DNA of 64,000 nucleotides from Thermoanaerobaculia bacterium (GTDB taxonomy: Bacteria; Acidobacteriota; Thermoanaerobaculia; Gp7-AA8), in NCBI GenBank assembly GCA_035626775.1, contig DASPNA010000078.1:42771-106770 (forward strand), given 5' to 3'. The position numbers were made by a program, and so were the translations under genes. Of the stretch, positions 3,138-61,427 are shown piece after piece. Every line of letters begins with the position of its first letter. The stretch's first letter is position 1. A model generated the notes under the pieces. The model was not told the DNA's origin, did not search any database, and was given only the letters and a program-made list of their open reading frames with translations.

Positions 3138-3600
3138 ACGCGATCGTGGTACGCGAAATCCTCGATCGCGCAAACATCCAGTTTGCGCTGATCGGCGCGG
3201 CTGCCGTGGCATTGCGTGGCCTGCCGCGCTTCACGCAGGACACCGACTTCTTCACCACGGACCGGCGCGTCCTTCAGCGTGATTTGTGGGACGTCCGATC
3301 AGGTCGATGTCGTCGTCGGCAAGTACAAGTGGGAGCAGCAGCTCCTCGCGCGCGCGGAGCGAATGGATTTGTTCGGCGCATCCGTGCTCGTTCCAGCACG
3401 AAGCGATCTCATTCTGATGAAACTCGCCGCCGGCGGCTACAAAGACCTGATCGACGCGGCCGGTCTGCTGTCGCTTGGGCCACGCGATGAATTGATTGCA
3501 GACGTGGCTTCGCGGATCGGCGACCTGTCCCGCGAAGCGCAGGCAAGCTGGCTCACCTTCTTCGCGAAACGAAGTAACTCAGGCCGGAAAACAGTCGACT
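3134..3600 (+). pseudogene. Pol-beta-superfamily nucleotidyltransferase, frameshifted near 3300
   Basis: Frame 2 reads VNAIVVREILDRANIQFALIGAAAVALRGLPRFTQDTDFFT (G-x-DxD NTase motif). The sequence continues in frame 0 as DQVDVVVGKYKWEQQLLARAERMDLFGASVLVPARSDLILMKLAAGGYKDLID. A single extra base near tcaGgtcgatg breaks the frame. The true 3' end is unclear. Confidence 0.5.
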
Positions 3601-3642
3601 CAACGAGCACAGCCCGCAATGGGCGACGCATATACTCGACGC

Positions 3643-4671
3643 ATGATGCGTCGGAAGTCCACCGCGACAGTCCTTTTCCTCGGGTTTCTCCTATCCGAAA
3701 CGGTGACTGGACAGGAACGACAGCTTCAGCAGGATCTCGCGCCGCTCGAGAAACGCGTGCGCGCCCTCGAGCAGCTTCTGCGGGACGCACCGGAACGTTT
3801 CGTCACGGAATCATTGGAGTTGTCGGCCGCATATCACGAAGCGGCAAAGCGCCACGCGAAGGTCACGCAAAGCGCCGGCGCGCGAAGCGACGCAGTGACA
3901 ATCCTGATACGCGCAGCGTTCGCGACGCGACAGATCCTTCGTCAACCGGAGCGAGCCCTCGATCTCTATCGCCGCGCCGCGGCACTGCATGCGGAACGAT
4001 ATCCTTCCGCGCGCGAGGCGGCGTTCCGGGACGAGATCGCGGACATCCAGCAGTTTGACCTTCGTGACCATGCAGCCGCAGCGAACACCCTCGAGCGGCT
4101 TCGCGAGTTCGAGAAGGCTCACGCGACCAATCAGGGAGAGATGGCGGGATGGAGTGCCTGGAGGGCGCAATGGCTGGACGCGGAGATCACGTATCTCCGT
4201 TCGAAGAAGGCATTCGCCGGCACCGTCAATGCCGCCGCGATGACCGGATTGATCGCACAGATCTATTACGGTGCGGGCACTGTCGGCTCTGTCCCGCTCG
4301 ACCCAGCGTTGAACATTTACAGTGAGACGTCGTTGTCACCCGCCGAGATCGAAACGAAGCTGGCGGCGCTTCCCGCATCACACACGACATTCCTCCAGAC
4401 TTGGATGTTCGCCACCAAATTACCCACGCCGGCCGCCGCACAGAAGTGGTTGACCCGTAATGACCCGGCCGGCTATTGGAGCGCGTCGCTCCTCACTCTG
4501 GCAGCGGTTGCGGAACGCGATCTCGACGCGTCTGCGGACCCGAAGTCCAATGTCGTGGCCAGTCTGATCCGTACGGAATCCAGGAAGCCAACGGCGTTCG
4601 CGCTACTGGCACGCCAATACGCGAAAACGCGTCGCCTGCCGCCGCCGATGCAGTTGAATATCGGTCATTGA
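3643..4671 (+). CDS. Secreted or periplasmic hypothetical protein
   Basis: ATG 3643 followed by MMRRKSTATVLFLGFLLSETVTGQ, a signal-peptide-like N-terminus, in a long open frame. Confidence 0.55.
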   Translation: MMRRKSTATVLFLGFLLSETVTGQERQLQQDLAPLEKRVRALEQLLRDAPERFVTESLELSAAYHEAAKRHAKVTQSAGARSDAVTILIRAAFATRQILRQPERALDLYRRAAALHAERYPSAREAAFRDEIADIQQFDLRDHAAAANTLERLREFEKAHATNQGEMAGWSAWRAQWLDAEITYLRSKKAFAGTVNAAAMTGLIAQIYYGAGTVGSVPLDPALNIYSETSLSPAEIETKLAALPASHTTFLQTWMFATKLPTPAAAQKWLTRNDPAGYWSASLLTLAAVAERDLDASADPKSNVVASLIRTESRKPTAFALLARQYAKTRRLPPPMQLNIGH

Positions 4672-22127: not shown

Positions 22128-23123
22128 ATGCGACTTACGCTCAAGCTCACGTTCCTGGTGCTGCTCGCGACATCGCCACTCGCGGCGCAAACGAACTACA
22201 CGATCACTCCGGACAACGGTCCCACCTCAGGCGGCACACACGTCACCATCAAGGGCGACTTCGGCCAATGGCCGTATGGCGTGATCTTCGGCGGCGTCTC
22301 TGTGCCCGCGACGCGCGTCGATGAGCACACGTTGACCGCAGTCACGCCGCCGCACATGCCCGGCAAGGTGGAGGTCGTCATCTTCGAGTTCGACATCGGC
22401 ATCAACACCGATCTCACGTTCGACTACATCGGGCCGGTCCCGGATGACTACGCACGGTTGCTCCTGCCGGTATTCACGCCGCCGGTGCACGGCGCGTTCG
22501 GCTCGCTGTTCTTCAGCAATCTGCGCGTACTGAACTACGGAGGCGCGACAGCATCGATCTACGGGCTCGAAATGGTCTGCGCGCCGATCCTCTGCATCCC
22601 GTTCGAAGGTCCGTTCGACCTCGGCCCCGGCTCAGAATCGACGGACTTCGTCCCGAACGGCAATCCCGGCCGCTTCGTGTACGTGAAGAAGGATCAGGCC
22701 GTGGGGCTGGCGATGAATTTACGCGTGTACGACACGACGCGCGAAGCGCTCAACTTCGGCACCGAGATCCCGATCGTGCGCGAGGAGGAGATGCCGCTGA
22801 ACCGCGTCGTCTTCACGGGCGTCCCGACCGATCCGCGTTTTCGCAACACGCTGCGCATCTATTCGACGTTCCCATTCACGGCGATCGTGACGATCGGAAA
22901 TCGACCGCCGGTGCGCGTGCGGATGTCGGACACCAACGGCATTCACGATCCGTCGTACGCCCAGTTCGGCGACTTTCCGACCGACGGCAATCCAGTACGC
23001 GTGACGATCGACGCGGAGCTCGACTTCCAGACGCTGCTGCCGGTCGACGTACCGATCTGGGCGATGATCACGGTCACGAACAACGAAACGCAGATGATCT
23101 CGACGATCACGCCGCAACCGTGA
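22128..23123 (+). CDS. Secreted IPT/TIG-domain protein, paralog 2
   Basis: MRLTLKLTFLVLLATSPLAAQ...; tandem duplicate of 21118..22113. An alternative ATG at 22113 would overlap as TAATG. Confidence 0.8.
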   Translation: MRLTLKLTFLVLLATSPLAAQTNYTITPDNGPTSGGTHVTIKGDFGQWPYGVIFGGVSVPATRVDEHTLTAVTPPHMPGKVEVVIFEFDIGINTDLTFDYIGPVPDDYARLLLPVFTPPVHGAFGSLFFSNLRVLNYGGATASIYGLEMVCAPILCIPFEGPFDLGPGSESTDFVPNGNPGRFVYVKKDQAVGLAMNLRVYDTTREALNFGTEIPIVREEEMPLNRVVFTGVPTDPRFRNTLRIYSTFPFTAIVTIGNRPPVRVRMSDTNGIHDPSYAQFGDFPTDGNPVRVTIDAELDFQTLLPVDVPIWAMITVTNNETQMISTITPQP

Positions 23124-23220
23124 CGAGGGGTCCCTCGGGTTCCTCGGTTCCTCGGGTTCCTCGGTGGGATAGGTTGCCCAATCGCCCACCCCGAGGAACC
23201 CGAGGAACCCCGAGGAACCG
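23124..23220. repeat. Palindromic element family 1
   Basis: gaggggtccctcgggttcctcggttcctcgggttcctcgg ... ccgaggaacccgaggaaccccgaggaaccg, between convergent genes. Confidence 0.75.
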
Positions 23221-23224
23221 TTTT

Positions 23225-28571: not shown

Positions 28572-28637
28572 CTGGAGCGACGGGCTCTCAGCCCGTCGAG
28601 CCCTGCATTTCGACGGGCCGAGAGCCCGTCGCTCCAG
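28572..28637. repeat. Palindromic element family 3, full copy
   Basis: ctggagcgacgggctctcagcccgtcg agccctgcatttcga cgggccgagagcccgtcgctccag. Confidence 0.75.
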
Positions 28638-29779: not shown

Positions 29780-29815
29780 TGGTCCTGTCTCTCCAGTGCT
29801 ACATGCTTCGCGAGT

Positions 29816-29918
29816 GGAAATTGAAAATTGAAAATTGAAAATTGAAAAATCGGACTCCGGGTCGCGCGAGGCACCGACTTTCGTTTTTTCAATTTTCAAT
29901 TTTCAATTTTCAATTTCG
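29816..29918. repeat. AT-rich palindrome, (GAAAATT)x4 ... (CAATTTT)x4, family 5
   Basis: ggaaattgaaaattgaaaattgaaaattgaaaaatcgg ... ccgactttcgttttttcaattttcaattttcaattttcaatttcg. A stem of about 33 bp, between pilB and pilT. Confidence 0.8.
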
Positions 29919-32490: not shown

Positions 32491-33407
32491 TCCGCGGTGA
32501 CCCTTCCCAGCATCGTCATCACCTCTTCAACACTTATCGAGTCCATCCATTTCGTGGTGGAAAAACGGTCGATGCAATGTTGCAGTTGGTGATACGGACC
32601 GTTGCGCCGTGGATTGGTCGGGCCGTAGAGGCCGATGACCTTCGTCCCGAGCGCGTCCGCGAGGTGCAGCGGGCCGGTGTCGCCGCCGATGACGACCTCT
32701 GCACTTTGGAGCAGACCTGCAAGCTCACGCAGGTTCGTCGACGGCGCGATACGAGCTCCGATCGCTTCCGCGAGCTCCCGTTCTCCCGGCCCCCACGCCG
32801 CGACCGCGCGCGGACCGATGCGCTTTGCGAGCTCGCGAAAACGCTCGACGGGCCACAGTTTGTTGGCCTTTCCGGCACCCGGGAGCAGGACGATGGAGTT
32901 TTCATAGCCAGGAACCGGAACCGCGAAATCGTCCCAATTCTGGAGCGACGGGCTCTCAGCCCGTCGGGTCTCGAGGTCGACCGGCTGAGAGCCCGTCGCT
33001 CCAGATGCGAGCTGCAGGTTTTGATCGATGACGTGCGACGCCGCATCGACACGTACGTGGCGGTTCGTGAACAGGAGCGCGGCTTTCTCGCGGATGGCGT
33101 GGCGATCGAATCCGTATCGCGTTTTCGCACCTGACAACCATCCGAGCGCCGCCGATTTGATCAGTCCCTGAAAGTCGACAGATGCATCGAAGCCGCGCGC
33201 GCTGCGAATCGCGCGAATGGCAGCTCGCGGTTCTTTCTTCATGCGCACCGGCAGCACCTCCACACCCGCGACGATCTCCACGAGCTCGCGATACGGCGCT
33301 TCGACGACCCACGTGACGTCCGCCGCGTTCTTGAGCGACACGACCGCGGGGATGGTGTGAATGACGTCGCCGAGTGCTGACAGACGAAGGACGAGCAGAC
33401 GGCTCAT
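32487..33407 (-). CDS. Glycosyltransferase family 9 (ADP-heptose:LPS heptosyltransferase-like)
   Basis: [22 protein letters not shown]...[24 protein letters not shown] (GT9 signature). ATGA overlap with hldC at 33404-33407. Contains an in-frame family-3 repeat. Confidence 0.8.
32940..33004. repeat. Palindromic element family 3, full copy embedded in-frame within the GT9 CDS
   Basis: ctggagcgacgggctctcagcccgtcg ggtctcgaggtcgac cggctgagagcccgtcgctccag. Translated on the minus strand as [21 protein letters not shown]. Confidence 0.75.
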
Positions 33408-48074: not shown

Positions 48075-48224
48075 GAAGCGATTCTAAACAAGATCGCCGC
48101 CGGCCCACGCGGCCGGCGGCGATCTTGTTTACTTCAGCAGGAGAGTAGGAGGATTGATCTGTCGCTTCTCGCTTCGTTTTCGTCGCTTCACACATTCAGA
48201 CGAACGGATCGCCGAAAAGTTTCG

Positions 48225-49280
48225 TCAGGCGATCCGAGAACGAGCCTCGACACGCCGCGGATCGCCGGCGTTGCCTTTTTGTAACCCCGCGAACGCGATC
48301 ATGGCCGCGTTGTCGGTGCAATAGCGCTTCTCCGGCAGGCGCACCACCACGCCGCGATGCTCGCCCCACGCGAGCATCCGCTCGCGGATGACTCCGTTGG
48401 CCGCCACACCGCCTGCAAGCGCCACCGCTTCGGGCTTCTCCCCTTCCAACCGCTGCCATATCGAATCGAGGCGATCGAAGAGTTGCGCGACGAGCGCTTC
48501 CTGAAAGGTCGCGCAGAAATCCTGGAACAACGGGCTCTCGGCCCATTCCGGATTTTCGTCGGGCTGAGAGCCCGTCGTTCCAGCCTGGATGGCGTGCTCG
48601 CGCGCGAGCCGGATCGCACCCGCTTTCAGGCCGCTATACGAAAAGTCCAACGACTCGTCGCGGAACTGCGGCACGACGAACGGGAACCGCTTCGCATCGA
48701 CCTTGCCGGCGCGTCCGTGTTTTTCGATCTCCGGCCCTCCGGGATACGGCAGGCCAATGAACTTCGCGACTTTGTCGAAGGTCTCGCCGATCGCATCATC
48801 GCGCGTGCGATTGAGCTGGCGGATGTCGCTGCCGCGCACGTCGTAGATCGCGGAGTGGCCACCGGAGATCACGAGCGAGAGAAAGCGCGCCGGCAACGGC
48901 AGCGCCGCTCCTTCGCGTTGCAGAAAAGGCGAGTAGATGTGACCTTCGAGATGATTGACGGGCATCAGCGGAATGCCCAATCCGTACGCGAGTCCCTGCG
49001 CGCCGGCCACGCCGACGAGCAACGCGCCGATCAATCCCGGACCCGACGTCACCGCAATCGAGTCGACGTCACTCCATTGCGCATTCGCGTCACCAAGCGC
49101 GCGCTCGACGAGCGGAAACAGATGCTGCAGATGCTCGCGCGACGCGATCTCCGGCACCACGCCGCCGAACGGCTGATGCCGCGCGATCTGCGAGTTGATC
49201 AGGTTCACGCGCACGTTCCCGTCGCGCTCGAGCAGAGCGACGGAAGTCTCGTCGCAGGACGTTTCGATTCCGAGGATCAC
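48225..49280 (-). CDS. tsaD: tRNA N6-adenosine threonylcarbamoyltransferase
   Basis: MILGIETSCDETSVAL..., HLEGH and GGVAAN motifs. Confidence 0.9.
   Translation of the reverse strand: MILGIETSCDETSVALLERDGNVRVNLINSQIARHQPFGGVVPEIASREHLQHLFPLVERALGDANAQWSDVDSIAVTSGPGLIGALLVGVAGAQGLAYGLGIPLMPVNHLEGHIYSPFLQREGAALPLPARFLSLVISGGHSAIYDVRGSDIRQLNRTRDDAIGETFDKVAKFIGLPYPGGPEIEKHGRAGKVDAKRFPFVVPQFRDESLDFSYSGLKAGAIRLAREHAIQAGTTGSQPDENPEWAESPLFQDFCATFQEALVAQLFDRLDSIWQRLEGEKPEAVALAGGVAANGVIRERMLAWGEHRGVVVRLPEKRYCTDNAAMIAFAGLQKGNAGDPRRVEARSRIA
48557..48583. repeat. Half copy of palindromic element family 3, in-frame inside tsaD
   Basis: cgtcgggctgagagcccgtcgttccag, translated as ...TTGSQPDENPEWAESPLFQ... 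Confidence 0.65.
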
Positions 49281-49328: not shown

Positions 49329-49477
49329 CAGAGTCTCAGAGTCTCAGAGTCTCAGAGGGTCGGTGGGACTCGCCGTTTTCAGAGCGGAGCAATCCGCGTT
49401 ACCGGAAATTCAGAGAAACGCCCGTCCCCACGACCCTCTGAGACTCTGAGACTCTGAGACTCTGAGACTCTGAGACT
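49329..49477. repeat. Palindromic element family 2, large copy
   Basis: (cagagtct)x3-4 gagggtcggtgggac ... gtccccacgaccctc (tgagactc)x4. Confidence 0.8.
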
Positions 49478-49533
49478 TCACGCAACGATCCGCACGCGTC
49501 CATTCGCGCGACGCTCCGAGCACGCGCCCTATA

Positions 49534-52191
49534 ATGCCGGCCCTCGCGATGAAAGAAGAACTCGCCACCCGATACGAGCCGTCCGAATTCGAGCAGCGCA
49601 TCTACGCCTCATGGGAAGAGGGCGGATATTTCACGCCCGTCGCCGACCGCGAGCGGCCGAAGTTCTCGATCGTCATCCCGCCGCCGAACGTCACCGGCCG
49701 GCTGCATATCGGCCACGCCCTCGTGAACACGCTGCAGGACATCATCGTGCGCTGGAAGCGTATGTCGGGCTTCAACACGCTGTGGCTTCCCGGCACCGAC
49801 CACGCCGGCATCGCCACGCAGATGGTCGTCGAAAAGCAGCTCGAGAAAGAAGGCATCTCCCGCTTCGACCTGGGGCGCGAAAAATTCGTCGAGCGCGTCT
49901 GGCAATGGAAGGAACAACACTCCACCGAGATCAAAGACCAGCTCACACGCCTCGGCGCTTCCGCCGATTGGTCGCGCGCGCGCTTTACGCTCGATGAAGG
50001 TCTCTCGCGCGCCGTGCGCTATGTGTTTGTGAAGCTGTACGAGGACGGCCTGATCTATCGCGATCTGGCGATGGTGAACTGGTGCCCGCGTTGCCGCACC
50101 GCGATCTCCGACGTCGAAGTGGAGTTCCGCGAAACGAACGGCAAGCTGTATCACATCGATTACCCGCTCGCCGATTCAGCATCGGGCACGGATCGCCGCC
50201 TGGCCGTTGCCACAACGCGTCCCGAGACGATGCTCGGCGATACCGGCGTGGCCGTGCATCCCGAAGACGAGCGCTATCGCGATCTCATCGGAAAACACGC
50301 GACGCTCCCGATCGTCAATCGCTCCATCCCGATCGTCGCCGATCCGATCCTGGTCGATCGCGAGTTCGGCACCGGCGTCGTGAAAGTCACGCCCGCGCAC
50401 GACAAGAACGACTACGAAGCCGGCCTGCGCAACAATCTTCCGCAGCTTCAGGTCATCGACGAACAAGGACGCATGACCAACGCCGCGGGCGCCGAGTTCA
50501 GCGGCCTCGATCGCAGCGAAGCGCGCGAGAAAGTCGTCGAGCGGTTGCGCGAGCTCGGGCTGCTCATCAAGGTCGAGAGCCACCTGCACAACGTGGCGGT
50601 GCACGAAAAGTGCGACACGCCGATCGAGCCGATGATCTCGCGGCAATGGTTCGTGAAGATCGAGCCGCTCGCGCGTCCCGCCATCGACGCCGTGCGCAAC
50701 GGCGAGGTCACCATCACGCCGCAGGCGTGGGAAGCGACGTACTTCAACTGGATGGAGAACATCCACGACTGGACCATCTCGCGCCAGCTCTGGTGGGGCC
50801 ATCGCATCCCCGCGTTTCATTGCGCGAATGGCCACACCAGCGTGTCCATCGACGATCTCACCACCTGCGCCGAGTGCGGCGCACCAGTCACGCAGGAGAC
50901 CGACGTGCTCGACACGTGGTTCTCGTCCGGACTGTGGCCGTTCTCGACGATGGGCTGGCCCGACGAGGGCTCGCCCGACTATCAAACGTTCTATCCGACC
51001 GACACGCTCATCACCGGTTTCGACATCCTTTTTTTCTGGGTGGCGCGCATGATCATGATGGGCCTGCGCTTCACCGGAAAAGCGCCGTTCTCGCAGGTGT
51101 TCTTGAACGGTCTCGTGCGCGACGAGCAGGGCCGGAAAATGTCGAAGACGATCGGCAACGTCATCGATCCGCTCGACGTCGTGAACGAAGTCGGCGCCGA
51201 CGCGCTCCGCTTCACGCTGGCCGTCAACGCCTCGGGACGCGACATTCCGCTCGGCCGCTCGCGCATCCAGGGTTACTCGGCGTTCGTGAACAAGATCTGG
51301 AACGCGTCGCGCTTCGCGATGATGCATATCGACACGGAGCTGAAGAGCGCCGGCCCGATCGAGCGCGACAATCTCAAGACCGTCGAGCGCTGGATTCTCT
51401 CGCGCCTCAACTCCGTCACGCGCGAAGTGAACAAGCAGCTTTCCGTGTTCCGCTTCGACGAAGCCGCGAACGCGATCTACCAGTTCTTCTGGCACGAGTT
51501 CTGTGACTGGTACATCGAGATGGCCAAGCCCGTGCTCCTCGGCAAGCACGGCACCGATGACGACCGCCGTCTCGCGCGCCGCGTGCTGCTGGAGGTGCTC
51601 GACCGCTCGCTGCGTCTGCTCCATCCGTTCATGCCGTTCGTCACCGAGGAGATCTGGCAGAAGCTCGGCGGCGTCGAGCCGTCGATCATGATCGCGCCGT
51701 ATCCGATCACCGAGGAAGTGCTCGAGGATCCGGATGCCGAGCGGCTGACCAGCGCGGTAAAGGCGATCATCACCACCGTGCGTAATCTGCGCGCGGAGCG
51801 CGGCTTCACGCCGAAGGACCGCTTTACGCTGCACATTCGCGGCAACGATCCACGCGAGTCGAACTTCTTCCGCGAATACGCCTACCTGCTGCTGGAACTG
51901 GCGCGGCTCAACGAAGTGATCGTCGAAGGCACGCCACCCACGGGCGCGCATCAGGACGTCGTCGAAGGCTTCACGATCGCGATCGTGTTCCCGGAGAAAG
52001 TGGTGTCCGAGGAACAGCTCGAAAAGGTACGCCGCGAGATCGAGAAGACGCGCAACGAGCTCGCGTCGATGGATGCGAAGCTCGCCAACGAGCAGTTCGT
52101 GCGCAACGCGCCGCCGCACATCGTGCAGGGCGCGCAGACGCGTCAGGCCGAGCTGCGCGCGCGGCTGGAGACGCTGCAGCAGAATCAATGA
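49534..52191 (+). CDS. valS: Valine--tRNA ligase
   Basis: PPPNVTGRLHIGHA (HIGH) and KMSKT (KMSKS), with a C-terminal coiled coil. Confidence 0.95.
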   Translation: MPALAMKEELATRYEPSEFEQRIYASWEEGGYFTPVADRERPKFSIVIPPPNVTGRLHIGHALVNTLQDIIVRWKRMSGFNTLWLPGTDHAGIATQMVVEKQLEKEGISRFDLGREKFVERVWQWKEQHSTEIKDQLTRLGASADWSRARFTLDEGLSRAVRYVFVKLYEDGLIYRDLAMVNWCPRCRTAISDVEVEFRETNGKLYHIDYPLADSASGTDRRLAVATTRPETMLGDTGVAVHPEDERYRDLIGKHATLPIVNRSIPIVADPILVDREFGTGVVKVTPAHDKNDYEAGLRNNLPQLQVIDEQGRMTNAAGAEFSGLDRSEAREKVVERLRELGLLIKVESHLHNVAVHEKCDTPIEPMISRQWFVKIEPLARPAIDAVRNGEVTITPQAWEATYFNWMENIHDWTISRQLWWGHRIPAFHCANGHTSVSIDDLTTCAECGAPVTQETDVLDTWFSSGLWPFSTMGWPDEGSPDYQTFYPTDTLITGFDILFFWVARMIMMGLRFTGKAPFSQVFLNGLVRDEQGRKMSKTIGNVIDPLDVVNEVGADALRFTLAVNASGRDIPLGRSRIQGYSAFVNKIWNASRFAMMHIDTELKSAGPIERDNLKTVERWILSRLNSVTREVNKQLSVFRFDEAANAIYQFFWHEFCDWYIEMAKPVLLGKHGTDDDRRLARRVLLEVLDRSLRLLHPFMPFVTEEIWQKLGGVEPSIMIAPYPITEEVLEDPDAERLTSAVKAIITTVRNLRAERGFTPKDRFTLHIRGNDPRESNFFREYAYLLLELARLNEVIVEGTPPTGAHQDVVEGFTIAIVFPEKVVSEEQLEKVRREIEKTRNELASMDAKLANEQFVRNAPPHIVQGAQTRQAELRARLETLQQNQ

Positions 52192-60299: not shown

Positions 60300-60325
60300 A
60301 ATCGGCGCGGTATATCACACGGAGG

Positions 60326-60423
60326 GAGTTCCTCGGGTTCCTCGGTTCCTCGGAGGGGAACGCGATGTGATGCTCCTCCCCTCCGAGGGACCCGAGGTAC
60401 TCCGAGGAACCCGAGGAACTCAC
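60326..60423. repeat. Palindromic element family 1
   Basis: gagttcctcgggttcctcggttcctcggaggggaa ... ccctccgagggacccgaggtactccgaggaacccgaggaactc. Confidence 0.75.
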
Positions 60424-61427
60424 TCGCGCGGCGTCACGTCCTTCCAACGAAAGCCTTCGCGCGCAAACAGGAACAAGCCCGTCGTCAGCACCGGCAGCGT
60501 TCCGATGACGTGAAACAGGACCGCGACGGCGACGCTCGCATCGATGCTGAACTGATAGAAGCGCGTGAGCACGAGCTGACACGCTTTGTGGAATCCGCCG
60601 ATCCCGCCCGGCGTCGGAATGGCCAGCCCCACCGTGGTCACGCCGGTGACGAAGAAGCTCGCGTCATACGGCAACGGCTGGTGAACGGCTTTCGTCGCGA
60701 ACCAGAACTGCGATGTAAGACAGAGCCACACACCCATCGTGCAAAGCACGACCTTCGCGAAGACGCGCCGGTTCTGCGTGATCTTCAGCGTCTCGGTGAA
60801 AGTGTCGAAGAAGTGCATCCAGGCGTTGCGGAAACGCTCGGGCAATAGCCGGCCGAGTTTCTCGTGCAGCCGCCGGACGCTCTCGCGAAAGAAGCTCAGG
60901 CTGATCATGAGGATCGCCAGCGCGACGAGCAACACCGCCGACGCGATGGCACCCGCGCGCACGATGTAGAACCACGCCGCCGTGGAAGCGTCATGCGAGA
61001 ACTCGTTCCAGCGCAGGATGGCGAAGAAAACGAACATCGTCAGGATGCTCGTGAGGTCGAGCACGCGCTCGGTCAGCACGGTACCGAGTGCGCCGGAGAA
61101 ACGATGCGATGTGCGCCGCGCGAGCAGCGCCGGCCGCGCGACATCGGACGCGCGAATGGGCAGGATGATCGAGAACATGTAGCCGACCGTGTTCGCGAAA
61201 AACGTCGCGAAGAACGGCGGAGGGTCATCGGGATCGAGGATGGTCCGCCACCGCAAGGTGCGCAGCAGCAGCGCCGTGGCGTTCGCGATGAAGCCGACGA
61301 TCACCCAGCCCCAGGAAGCGGCGGCGAGGATGCGTCCAACCTGCTGGAGGTCGGCGTTCCGCAGGAAAAGCCAGAGGAAGAAGACCGTCAGCGCCGCAAT
61401 GAACGCGATCTGTAGAATGCGCTTCAA
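60420..61427 (-). CDS. Lysylphosphatidylglycerol-synthase-TM-domain-like (UPF0104) membrane protein
   Basis: Eight TM helices, with a ...PTPGGIGGFH... block. Confidence 0.7.
   Translation of the reverse strand: MKRILQIAFIAALTVFFLWLFLRNADLQQVGRILAAASWGWVIVGFIANATALLLRTLRWRTILDPDDPPPFFATFFANTVGYMFSIILPIRASDVARPALLARRTSHRFSGALGTVLTERVLDLTSILTMFVFFAILRWNEFSHDASTAAWFYIVRAGAIASAVLLVALAILMISLSFFRESVRRLHEKLGRLLPERFRNAWMHFFDTFTETLKITQNRRVFAKVVLCTMGVWLCLTSQFWFATKAVHQPLPYDASFFVTGVTTVGLAIPTPGGIGGFHKACQLVLTRFYQFSIDASVAVAVLFHVIGTLPVLTTGLFLFAREGFRWKDVTPRE

Follow-up and report, generated by a model that had tools for sequence, protein, structure and literature searches.

Inverted pairs of 7–9-nt tandem repeats are known from cyanobacteria and Xanthomonas, and an accepted origin or function for them is lacking. 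The closest precedent for the element described here is the GGGAATC (GGGANTN) heptamer pairs of Xanthomonas (Rehm et al., 2015; PMC4692102). Their units combine a conserved core with two variable positions, most arrays count four units, and approximately three quarters of the arrays lie in convergent inverted pairs that are capable of forming a stem-loop (PMC4692102). Between 89 and 93% of them are intergenic and near the stop codon of the upstream ORF, and in a comparison of two species 83% have kept the same gene context, the number of repeats varying (PMC4692102). The authors attributed the four-unit bias to G-quadruplex formation (PMC4692102). In cyanobacteria, STRR hairpins consist of tandem short units in intergenic regions, with examples in the hupS–hupL spacer and ahead of hoxW; for STRR located between co-transcribed genes, a role in transcript stability or translational coupling has been proposed (PMC2670836). 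TAACTGA heptamers have been reported from marine Beggiatoaceae, cyanobacteria, and Bacteroidetes (MacGregor, 2015; PMC4679880).

Other repeats share the inverted layout with larger arms. A REPIN consists of two inverted REPs around a spacer and is presumed to be mobilized in trans. The spacer of a REPIN is less conserved than its REPs, and REPINs are not known to leave a target-site duplication. In foldback transposons, arm lengths differ within and between copies. The tandem repeats within the inverted repeats of the foldback element Galileo contain extra transposase-binding sites (PMC4079207). A REP itself is described as an imperfect palindrome of 20–40 nt with a conserved GTAG or CGTC tag at one end (PMC3733652).

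Two Tandem-Arm Palindromes in the Window

The window, a 64,000-nucleotide stretch of DNA from a metagenomic Thermoanaerobaculia bacterium, had been reported in the first-pass annotation to hold two palindromes with mirrored tandem CAGAGTCT arms, the larger of which was said to enclose a second, inner palindrome. All of this was borne out. Copy E (49329–49477) and copy B (12533–12629) both consist of tandem CAGAGTCT units, a spacer, and tandem AGACTCTG units, and TRF detected tandem arrays in the arms of both. The left arm of copy E (49329–49357, forward strand) holds 3.6 units by TRF, all of the T/G-state type, and ends inward in the phase ...CAGAG, while its right arm (49436–49477, forward strand) holds 5.2 complementary units with TGA in all three reading frames. 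The 78-nt spacer between them (49358–49435), whose sequence was found at no other locus, contains a second stem formed from its ends and an innermost hairpin, GCGGAGCAATCCGC, at 49384–49397. The inner palindrome pairs gagggtcggtgggac (49355–49369) with gtccccacgaccctc (49424–49438), overlapping the ends of the arms, and the inverted repeat that includes it has 55-nt arms that are 85% complementary. In copy B, the left arm (12533–12569, forward strand) begins with a degenerate unit from 12533, continues with 4.4 units at 12535–12569 by TRF, and reads T,G,T,T inward at the variable position K of its units. Its 35-nt spacer (12570–12604), also found only here, contains a short inner stem (GGTCC/GGACC), and the right arm (12605–12629, forward strand) has 2.9 units at 12605–12627 by TRF.

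A search of the window with a two-unit 16-mer, allowing up to two mismatches, gave 12 matches, all inside copies E and B, where shuffled sequences led us to expect 0.03. The arrays are not a chance occurrence. The RNA fold of copy E reached −99.4 kcal/mol (z = −9.2), and the DNA fold of copy B reached −30.3 kcal/mol (z = −5.4). Copy E is an oversized member of its family: its spacer measures 78 nt, and the median for all members is 24.5 nt. The inner palindrome is specific to copy E, as the other members are without that feature. The exact TsaD protein encoded beside copy E was found on two ENA contigs, each with an identical copy E. Both copies were unchanged in contigs 98.9–99.7% identical to the window and, for copy B, in one further contig.

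Gene Neighborhoods of Copies E and B

Copy E lies between tsaD (48225–49280, reverse strand; Pfam TsaD), the start of which is 48 nt from its left arm, and valS (49534–52191, forward strand; Pfam tRNA-synt_1 and Anticodon_1), which starts 56–71 nt from its right arm. The first ATG of valS is at 49534, and the second, at 49549, is a possible true start. The two genes are divergent, and copy E takes 149 of the 253 intergenic bases. The first-pass annotation had placed the copy in a divergent promoter region; the divergent intergenic location is correct, and the word promoter describes position only. No sigma-70-type promoter or terminator-like site was predicted in or beside copy E. A TATAAT recognized by eye at 49530–49535 lies downstream of the copy.

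Presence or absence of the element in relatives at this site had also been proposed as informative. In the only close TsaD relative in metagenomes, at locus L088 (73–75% amino-acid identity), the octamer element is absent from the tsaD/valS region, and a different tandem-arm repeat is there instead. At tsaD/valS, copy E most likely persists as a tolerated passenger and was not built for the purpose of a promoter or terminator. The right end of copy B shares bases with the TGA stop codon (12626–12628) of a DUF1028-family gene (12626–13660, reverse strand).

Several further features were noted in these neighborhoods. A perfect palindrome at 48085–48131, with 21-nt arms (TAAACAAGATCGCCGCCGGCC and its complement) and a 5-nt loop, lies between an epimerase-like gene and tsaD, and a related motif, AAACAAGATGGCCCC, occurs near 11955–12000. 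The long non-coding stretch that separates copy B from a GGTTCCTCG element contains an 80-bp tandem repeat (12054–12358; 3.8 copies, 75% matches). Near this repeat-rich stretch, approximately 268 nt past the DUF1028 gene, two independent contigs come to an end, L172 and L173 (the second from GCA_035626595.1). An NYN-domain protein with a predicted ribonuclease fold is encoded at 16793–17611 of the window.

Abundance and Taxonomic Range

The exact 19-mer GAGTCTCAGAGTCTCAGAG was scanned in one genome per species, and at least 85 stretches of DNA matched, nearly all of them from Thermoanaerobaculia or Acidobacteriota MAGs. At least 74 paired elements were present in the matched loci, with at least 29–30 in each of two MAGs; these counts are lower bounds because the scan, which listed at least 85 stretches, needed an exact 19-mer match. 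The same requirement biases the sample of elements, and the source assemblies are short-read MAGs. At least seven related MAGs carry the family, scattered over numerous intergenic sites that are unrelated to one another. Among the matches listed from other phyla and from viral contigs, the 19-mer was confined to single unpaired arrays. A phage origin was rejected, as four viral contigs matched and each held a single array only. In one viral contig, IMGVR_UViG_3300031576_001184 (L169, approximately 3600–3670), Xanthomonas-type GGGAATC-like heptamers adjoin a GAGTCTCA octamer array.

The repeat family that had been postulated from two copies therefore has many more members in related genomes, and where the lack of further copies would have spoken against it, related MAGs hold dozens of copies per genome. 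Copies E and B represent a lineage-restricted family of Thermoanaerobaculia whose short foldback elements are non-coding and high in copy number. In these MAGs, the elements occupy about a tenth or more of the intergenic regions. For genome annotation, it is relevant that they overlap stop codons, can alter how a protein ends at its C-terminus, and are found where contigs break.

Anatomy of Unit, Arms and Spacer

The canonical element measures approximately 92 nt in total and is composed of (AGTCKCAR)×4 followed by AG, a spacer of approximately 25 nt, and CT followed by (YTGMGACT)×4. All 74 paired elements have the polarity (AGTCKCAR)n, spacer, (YTGMGACT)n, and the reverse order was never seen. 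The inner boundary (...CARAG/spacer/CTYTG...) and the outer boundary ((G)AGTC...GACT(C)) are both constant. The modal arm is 34–35 nt long, that is, four units plus AG; by rounded unit count, 78 of the 148 arms have four units, 27 have three, and 17 have five. The length of the left arm does not predict that of the right (r = 0.00), and spacers range from 11 to 176 nt around the median given above. Either strand of the element is able to fold as a long hairpin. No stop codon occurs in any frame of the first arm, and three or more AGACTCTG units give TGA in all three frames.

Across 575 units, the A, G, T, C, C, and A positions are each more than 99% invariant. The remaining two positions are nearly restricted to two states, K being T in 75% and G in 25% of units and R being G in 85% and A in 13%, with other bases almost absent. 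Because the arm detector penalizes a mismatch equally at all positions, this contrast is not a detection artifact. The K and R states are mutually independent within units, and the likeness of neighboring units in typical arms was 0.60, compared with 0.63 expected. No covariation between arms was detected at K or R in any register (|z| at most 1.6), so conserved pairing at those positions is rejected. Certain K patterns, read from outer to inner, recur across several genomes (T,G,T,T in left arms and T,T,G,T in right arms), and T,G,T,T, which copy B carries, is more frequent in the left arms of the family than any other. Arms of more than five units are mostly runs of a single unit type. Lineage-specific unit variants include CACAG in SMAG_U4347 and GAGTCGTC in SMAG_U1196 and co31. 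At L003 (1384–1572), a whole element with AAGTC-variant units is tandemly duplicated, with approximately 105 nt per copy, beside a response-regulator-like gene.

Placement Relative to Genes

Gene positions were obtained with a crude, GC3-based gene caller, and start codons are uncertain for that reason. All 74 paired elements are intergenic. Intergenic regions with an element of any family were tandem in 58 cases, convergent in 19, and divergent in 17, compared with 181, 63, and 62, respectively, for those without an element. The elements use the three contexts in background proportions, which leaves a dedicated promoter or terminator role unsupported. Of about 66 gene 3′ ends next to an element, approximately 14 share exactly 2 nt with it and form their stop codon at the junction (T+AG or T+GA), and most of the others end within 15 nt of it. 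The next start codon is often found 6–20 nt past the element, and in approximately seven cases an ORF extends into it. No T tract was found in the flanks of the 74 paired elements.

Known classes of non-coding feature were also compared with these data. An intrinsic (Rho-independent) terminator was rejected on the missing T/U tract, the lack of a terminator-like site at copy E, and the background proportions of contexts, and a CRISPR array was rejected on the inverted arms and the single spacer per element. The whole window gave no match to Rfam 15 at the gathering score, and at copy E the single match, to a viral hairpin RNA, fell below the threshold and is attributable to chance.

Sister Families and Composites

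Sister families were sought by pairing TRF arrays with their reverse complements located up to 250 nt apart. At least 12 other unit sequences of 7–9 nt with the four-unit inverted layout were found in these genomes, including GTTGCTG, AATTGAA, GTTGTC-N, GGTGTC-N, AGTGGTC, GGTTCCTCG, and AGTCKTAC. Four units were the mode in the 7-nt unit families (35 of 66 arms) and the commonest count for 9-nt units, of which eight arms were sampled. This shared mode for 7-, 8-, and 9-nt units suggests that unit number, and not nucleotide length, is preferred. The clade is a natural experiment: single genomes contain many unit sequences arranged in one and the same architecture.

In the window, the tandem-arm layout is also present in GGTTCCTCG palindromes with 8–9-nt units (11860–11944, 23116–23222, and 60322–60425) and in an AAATTGA heptamer palindrome (29815–29917) with 4.4 units per arm and an inner ATCGGA/TCCGAT stem. 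The GGTTCCTCG family was also observed in loci L038, L051, and L074, and the AAATTGA family in loci L005, L019, L027, L039, and L041. The loops of elements often contain other repeat families. Three loci of one MAG (L057 7319–7490, L021 3385–3550, and L053 2146–2260) combine arms of the AGTCKCAR family (A) with arms of the AGTCKTAC family (B), which alternate as A> B> loop <A <B. One intact element inserting into another could not give this interleaved order, and these composites permit two alternative hairpins or a pseudoknot-like fold.

A separate REPIN-like doublet, composed of CTGGAGCGACGGGCTCTCAGCCCGTCG, approximately 10 nt, and the complement, is present at 48522–48583 (inside tsaD, reverse strand), 15733–15797, 28572–28637, and 32939–33005. 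Translation continues in frame through the doublet in tsaD (..AGTTGSQPDENPEWAESPLFQ..), at the position of a 12-residue insertion (aa 234–246, nt 48543–48581) relative to the 75%-identical TsaD of L088.

Possible Mobility and Copying, and Age of the Elements

Two orthologous sites were found in filled and empty states. An element follows directly after a TAG stop codon in L045, and L018 has a 47-nt spacer without an element at that site; L007 carries an element where L020 has only 8 nt before a uvrB-like start. The upstream ORF of L007 has a 13-residue tail derived from the left arm and a TGA stop codon in the spacer. Paralogous elements of SMAG_U4347 with related spacers and unrelated flanks were identified in three pairs: L027/L081 (22 of 24 positions identical), L025/L072, and L036/L065. 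Approximately one spacer in four has the motif RGCTYCGCC beside one of the arms. Together, the shared spacers and this motif indicate that arms and spacer are inherited as a unit. Clearly related spacers amounted to two or three pairs and three copies with a nested AGTCKTAC array, and the remainder were at the shuffled level. In L027/L081, the K patterns of the arms differ and the spacers are 92% identical, which indicates that arm patterns change faster than point substitution and points to unit-level exchange.

Two other accounts of the spacer were rejected. If it were older local sequence that gained arms, the filled/empty comparisons should reveal it; both were at chance likeness (approximately 1.5 matches expected by our own estimate), and the paralogs with near-identical spacers contradict this idea. 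Homology of spacers at orthologous sites was rejected on alignment scores of 3–10 against a shuffled 99th percentile of 9, the correct orientation scoring no better. As for traces of insertion, no target-site duplication of 3 nt or more exceeded the shuffled-pair control at 16 boundary offsets. Flanking 2-nt direct repeats were observed in 11 cases compared with 3.4 expected, a marginal and unconvincing excess, and palindromic extension into the flanks was only marginally over the control.

The same orthologous intergenic sites are filled in genomes whose flanking genes share 75–81% DNA identity, which points to long retention under constraint or a very strong site preference. Site sharing across genomes may reflect either long retention or recurrent insertion at permissive sites, as both are compatible with the data. 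Different unit families occupy orthologous sites in different genomes in several cases: L088 2413–2490 and window 49329–49477; L008 2202–2434 and L072 5097–5278; L008 7301–7384 and L072 1–97; and L041 6881–6977 and L064 6382–6463. This suggests that insertion strongly favors certain sites or that elements replace one another in situ.

No transposase or RAYT gene recurred near the elements, and protein clustering over approximately 680 kb of loci gave ordinary large families only. Among the 20 proteins of the window that were scanned against Pfam, there was no transposase, only products of housekeeping genes. Arms separated by 0.5–4 kb around an ORF were not seen in the retrieved loci.

Origin and Possible Function

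On balance, we consider it probable that the octamer family is a non-autonomous foldback repeat of a REPIN- or MITE-like kind, copied as a unit and then reshaped by slippage or unit exchange. An enzyme supplied in trans would copy arms and spacer together. Its target might be the octamer arrays, each offering several binding sites as foldback transposons do, or else the hairpin folded from single-stranded DNA, in the manner of REPIN/RAYT and IS200/IS605-type systems. Insertions would survive only at gene boundaries; one at the extreme 3′ end of a gene would swap only a few C-terminal residues because arm 1 is stop-free and arm 2 has TGA in three frames. After insertion, slipped-strand or unequal exchange would add, remove, and reshuffle units, and the single-stranded loop would evolve rapidly.

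The presence or absence of whole elements at orthologous sites and the shared spacers in unrelated flanks count for this foldback reading, as do the abundance of the family, its constant polarity and phases, its intergenic location, its lineage-specific unit variants, the change of arms after insertion, and the occurrence of other repeats in the loops. By analogy, the sub-repeat binding sites of Galileo and the mobilization of REPINs in trans would also fit. Several observations count against it. In the sequence sampled, no transposase, RAYT, or autonomous copy was seen, and the mostly unrelated spacers are unusual for a copy-and-paste MITE. The six invariant and two two-state positions look more like a per-unit sequence constraint than the decay of a selfish element, and the interleaved composites with a second family are a further difficulty, as are the orthologous sites that are filled in genomes with diverged flanking genes. 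With at least 12 unit families, the model requires either a separate enzyme for every family or a single one that reads structure instead of sequence.

Selection by the host of a hairpin acting in cis, as RNA or DNA, could also account for a number of these features. The hairpin would protect mRNA 3′ ends, terminate transcription independently of a U tract, offer an RNase III site, or couple translation from stop to start across the stem. The stems of copies E and B are very stable, the elements lie tight against stop codons with the next start often a short distance on, and orthologous sites in diverged genomes are filled, sometimes by other families, as if any hairpin sufficed. STRR offer a parallel through the proposal of transcript stability or coupling (PMC2670836), and most Xanthomonas repeats of the GGGAATC type are transcribed (PMC4692102). 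We nevertheless regard this explanation as unlikely: there is no 3′-end or convergent bias, divergent promoter regions are used at the background proportion, and no T or U tract trails the stem. K and R do not covary between arms, so perfect pairing is not conserved, and selection on structure only would not fix one octamer at hundreds of loci.

It is less likely still that the octamer arrays are sites for a host protein, such as a nucleoid-organizing, segregation, or other repeat-binding protein, with hairpin potential as a by-product. At least 12 unit sequences in the same genomes would require equally many proteins, no candidate protein was found in the sequence sampled, and random positions at gene boundaries suggest no regulon; in addition, the filled/empty sites and the shared-spacer copies indicate mobility. 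These points weigh against a unit profile that does resemble a recognition motif, with six invariant and two tolerant positions that are independent between units and between arms, and against the preference for four units at lengths of 7, 8, and 9 nt. Ribbon-helix-helix proteins bind contiguous 7–8-bp repeats, as in the heptads of the omega repressor, the 8-bp met boxes of MetJ, and the ACTC boxes of ParG (8-bp spacing).

Local expansion of simple sequence, in which slippage during replication lengthened the arms of a small pre-existing hairpin at each locus and nothing moved between loci, is very improbable. It agrees with the variable unit number and with the uniform runs in long arms, and heptamer repeats over-represented in some bacterial genomes have been credited to polymerase slippage, in work cited by PMC4679880. 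Such growth cannot give the same octamer, polarity, and phases at 74 or more unrelated loci in several genomes, nor shared spacers at unrelated sites, and neighboring units are no more alike than chance. The dispersal data already contradict this reading. A G-quadruplex or other non-B DNA structure, as offered for the four-unit preference of Xanthomonas repeats with the same architecture and mode (PMC4692102), deserves almost no credence, for AGTCKCAR, AATTGAA, and GTTGTCN all keep the four-unit mode without a G tract, and the reading is, as judged from the letters themselves, already contradicted. Telomerase-like addition of units at a break, which fits the polarity and not the outer phase or the shared-spacer copies, and a Chi-like orientation-dependent motif, which is incompatible with a dozen different units, were also rejected.

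Alongside the foldback reading, a broader and rather doubtful possibility is that the octamer family, its sister families, the GGGAATC pairs of Xanthomonas, and perhaps STRR form one phylum-spanning class of "four-unit foldback repeats" with dedicated unit-counting machinery. Candidates for such machinery would be a nucleic-acid-binding enzyme that is tetrameric or has four domains, or template-directed synthesis of about four units per strand. The two-state positions and the interleaved composites would then be signatures of that machinery and not of ordinary transposition. A four-unit preference at any unit length, without G-quadruplex potential, removes the only published explanation for the number four. 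The fixed phases, the two tolerated positions, the lack of arm covariation, the filled/empty sites, and the loops that accept other elements provide handles on the problem.

Comparison With Known Systems

Terminal inverted repeats are shared with MITEs, which differ in that the octamer element has no target-site duplication, an internal sequence mostly not common to its copies, and no parent IS with the same ends among the sequences seen. Like the foldback transposons FB, Galileo, and Tetris, it has, in miniature, inverted repeats assembled from tandem sub-repeats on either side of a middle domain that varies. Those transposons are eukaryotic and 10–100 times larger, and they have an 8–10-bp target-site duplication and a Mutator- or P-superfamily transposase, neither of which was found for the octamer element in the sequence sampled. 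REPINs resemble it in their two inverted conserved modules around a spacer, their hairpin, and their high-copy, intergenic, and vertically persistent character. In contrast to REPs and REPINs, the arms are octamer arrays that are not self-palindromic and carry no GTAG or CGTC tag, and no RAYT gene was found in the approximately 680 kb of loci or among the 20 window proteins. REPINs and eukaryotic foldback transposons are the best mechanistic analogies.

In architecture, the nearest systems are bacterial. TAACTGA repeats are likewise short intergenic units set against gene boundaries, in sets of 2–6, with no known mechanism of spread (PMC4679880). They form direct arrays oriented toward a downstream start, with one inverted set reported, whereas the octamer elements are all inverted pairs (PMC4679880). 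STRR are a second precedent (PMC2670836; Vioque, 1997, through citing work); they are heptamer units of heterocyst-forming cyanobacteria, whereas the present unit is an octamer of Acidobacteriota, and the likeness is architectural only. The Xanthomonas pairs share a conserved core with two degenerate positions, the preference for four units, convergent intergenic arrays, closeness to the upstream stop codon, and persistence at the same gene neighborhoods across species. By comparison, AGTCKCAR has 8 nt instead of 7, no GGG run, and no G-quadruplex potential, and its host belongs to the Acidobacteriota and not to the Gammaproteobacteria. The AGTCKCAR elements, unlike those of Xanthomonas, are not depleted between divergent genes, and many unit families coexist within one genome in Thermoanaerobaculia. 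The octamer element is a new example of a known, unexplained class, the inverted pairs of short tandem repeats.
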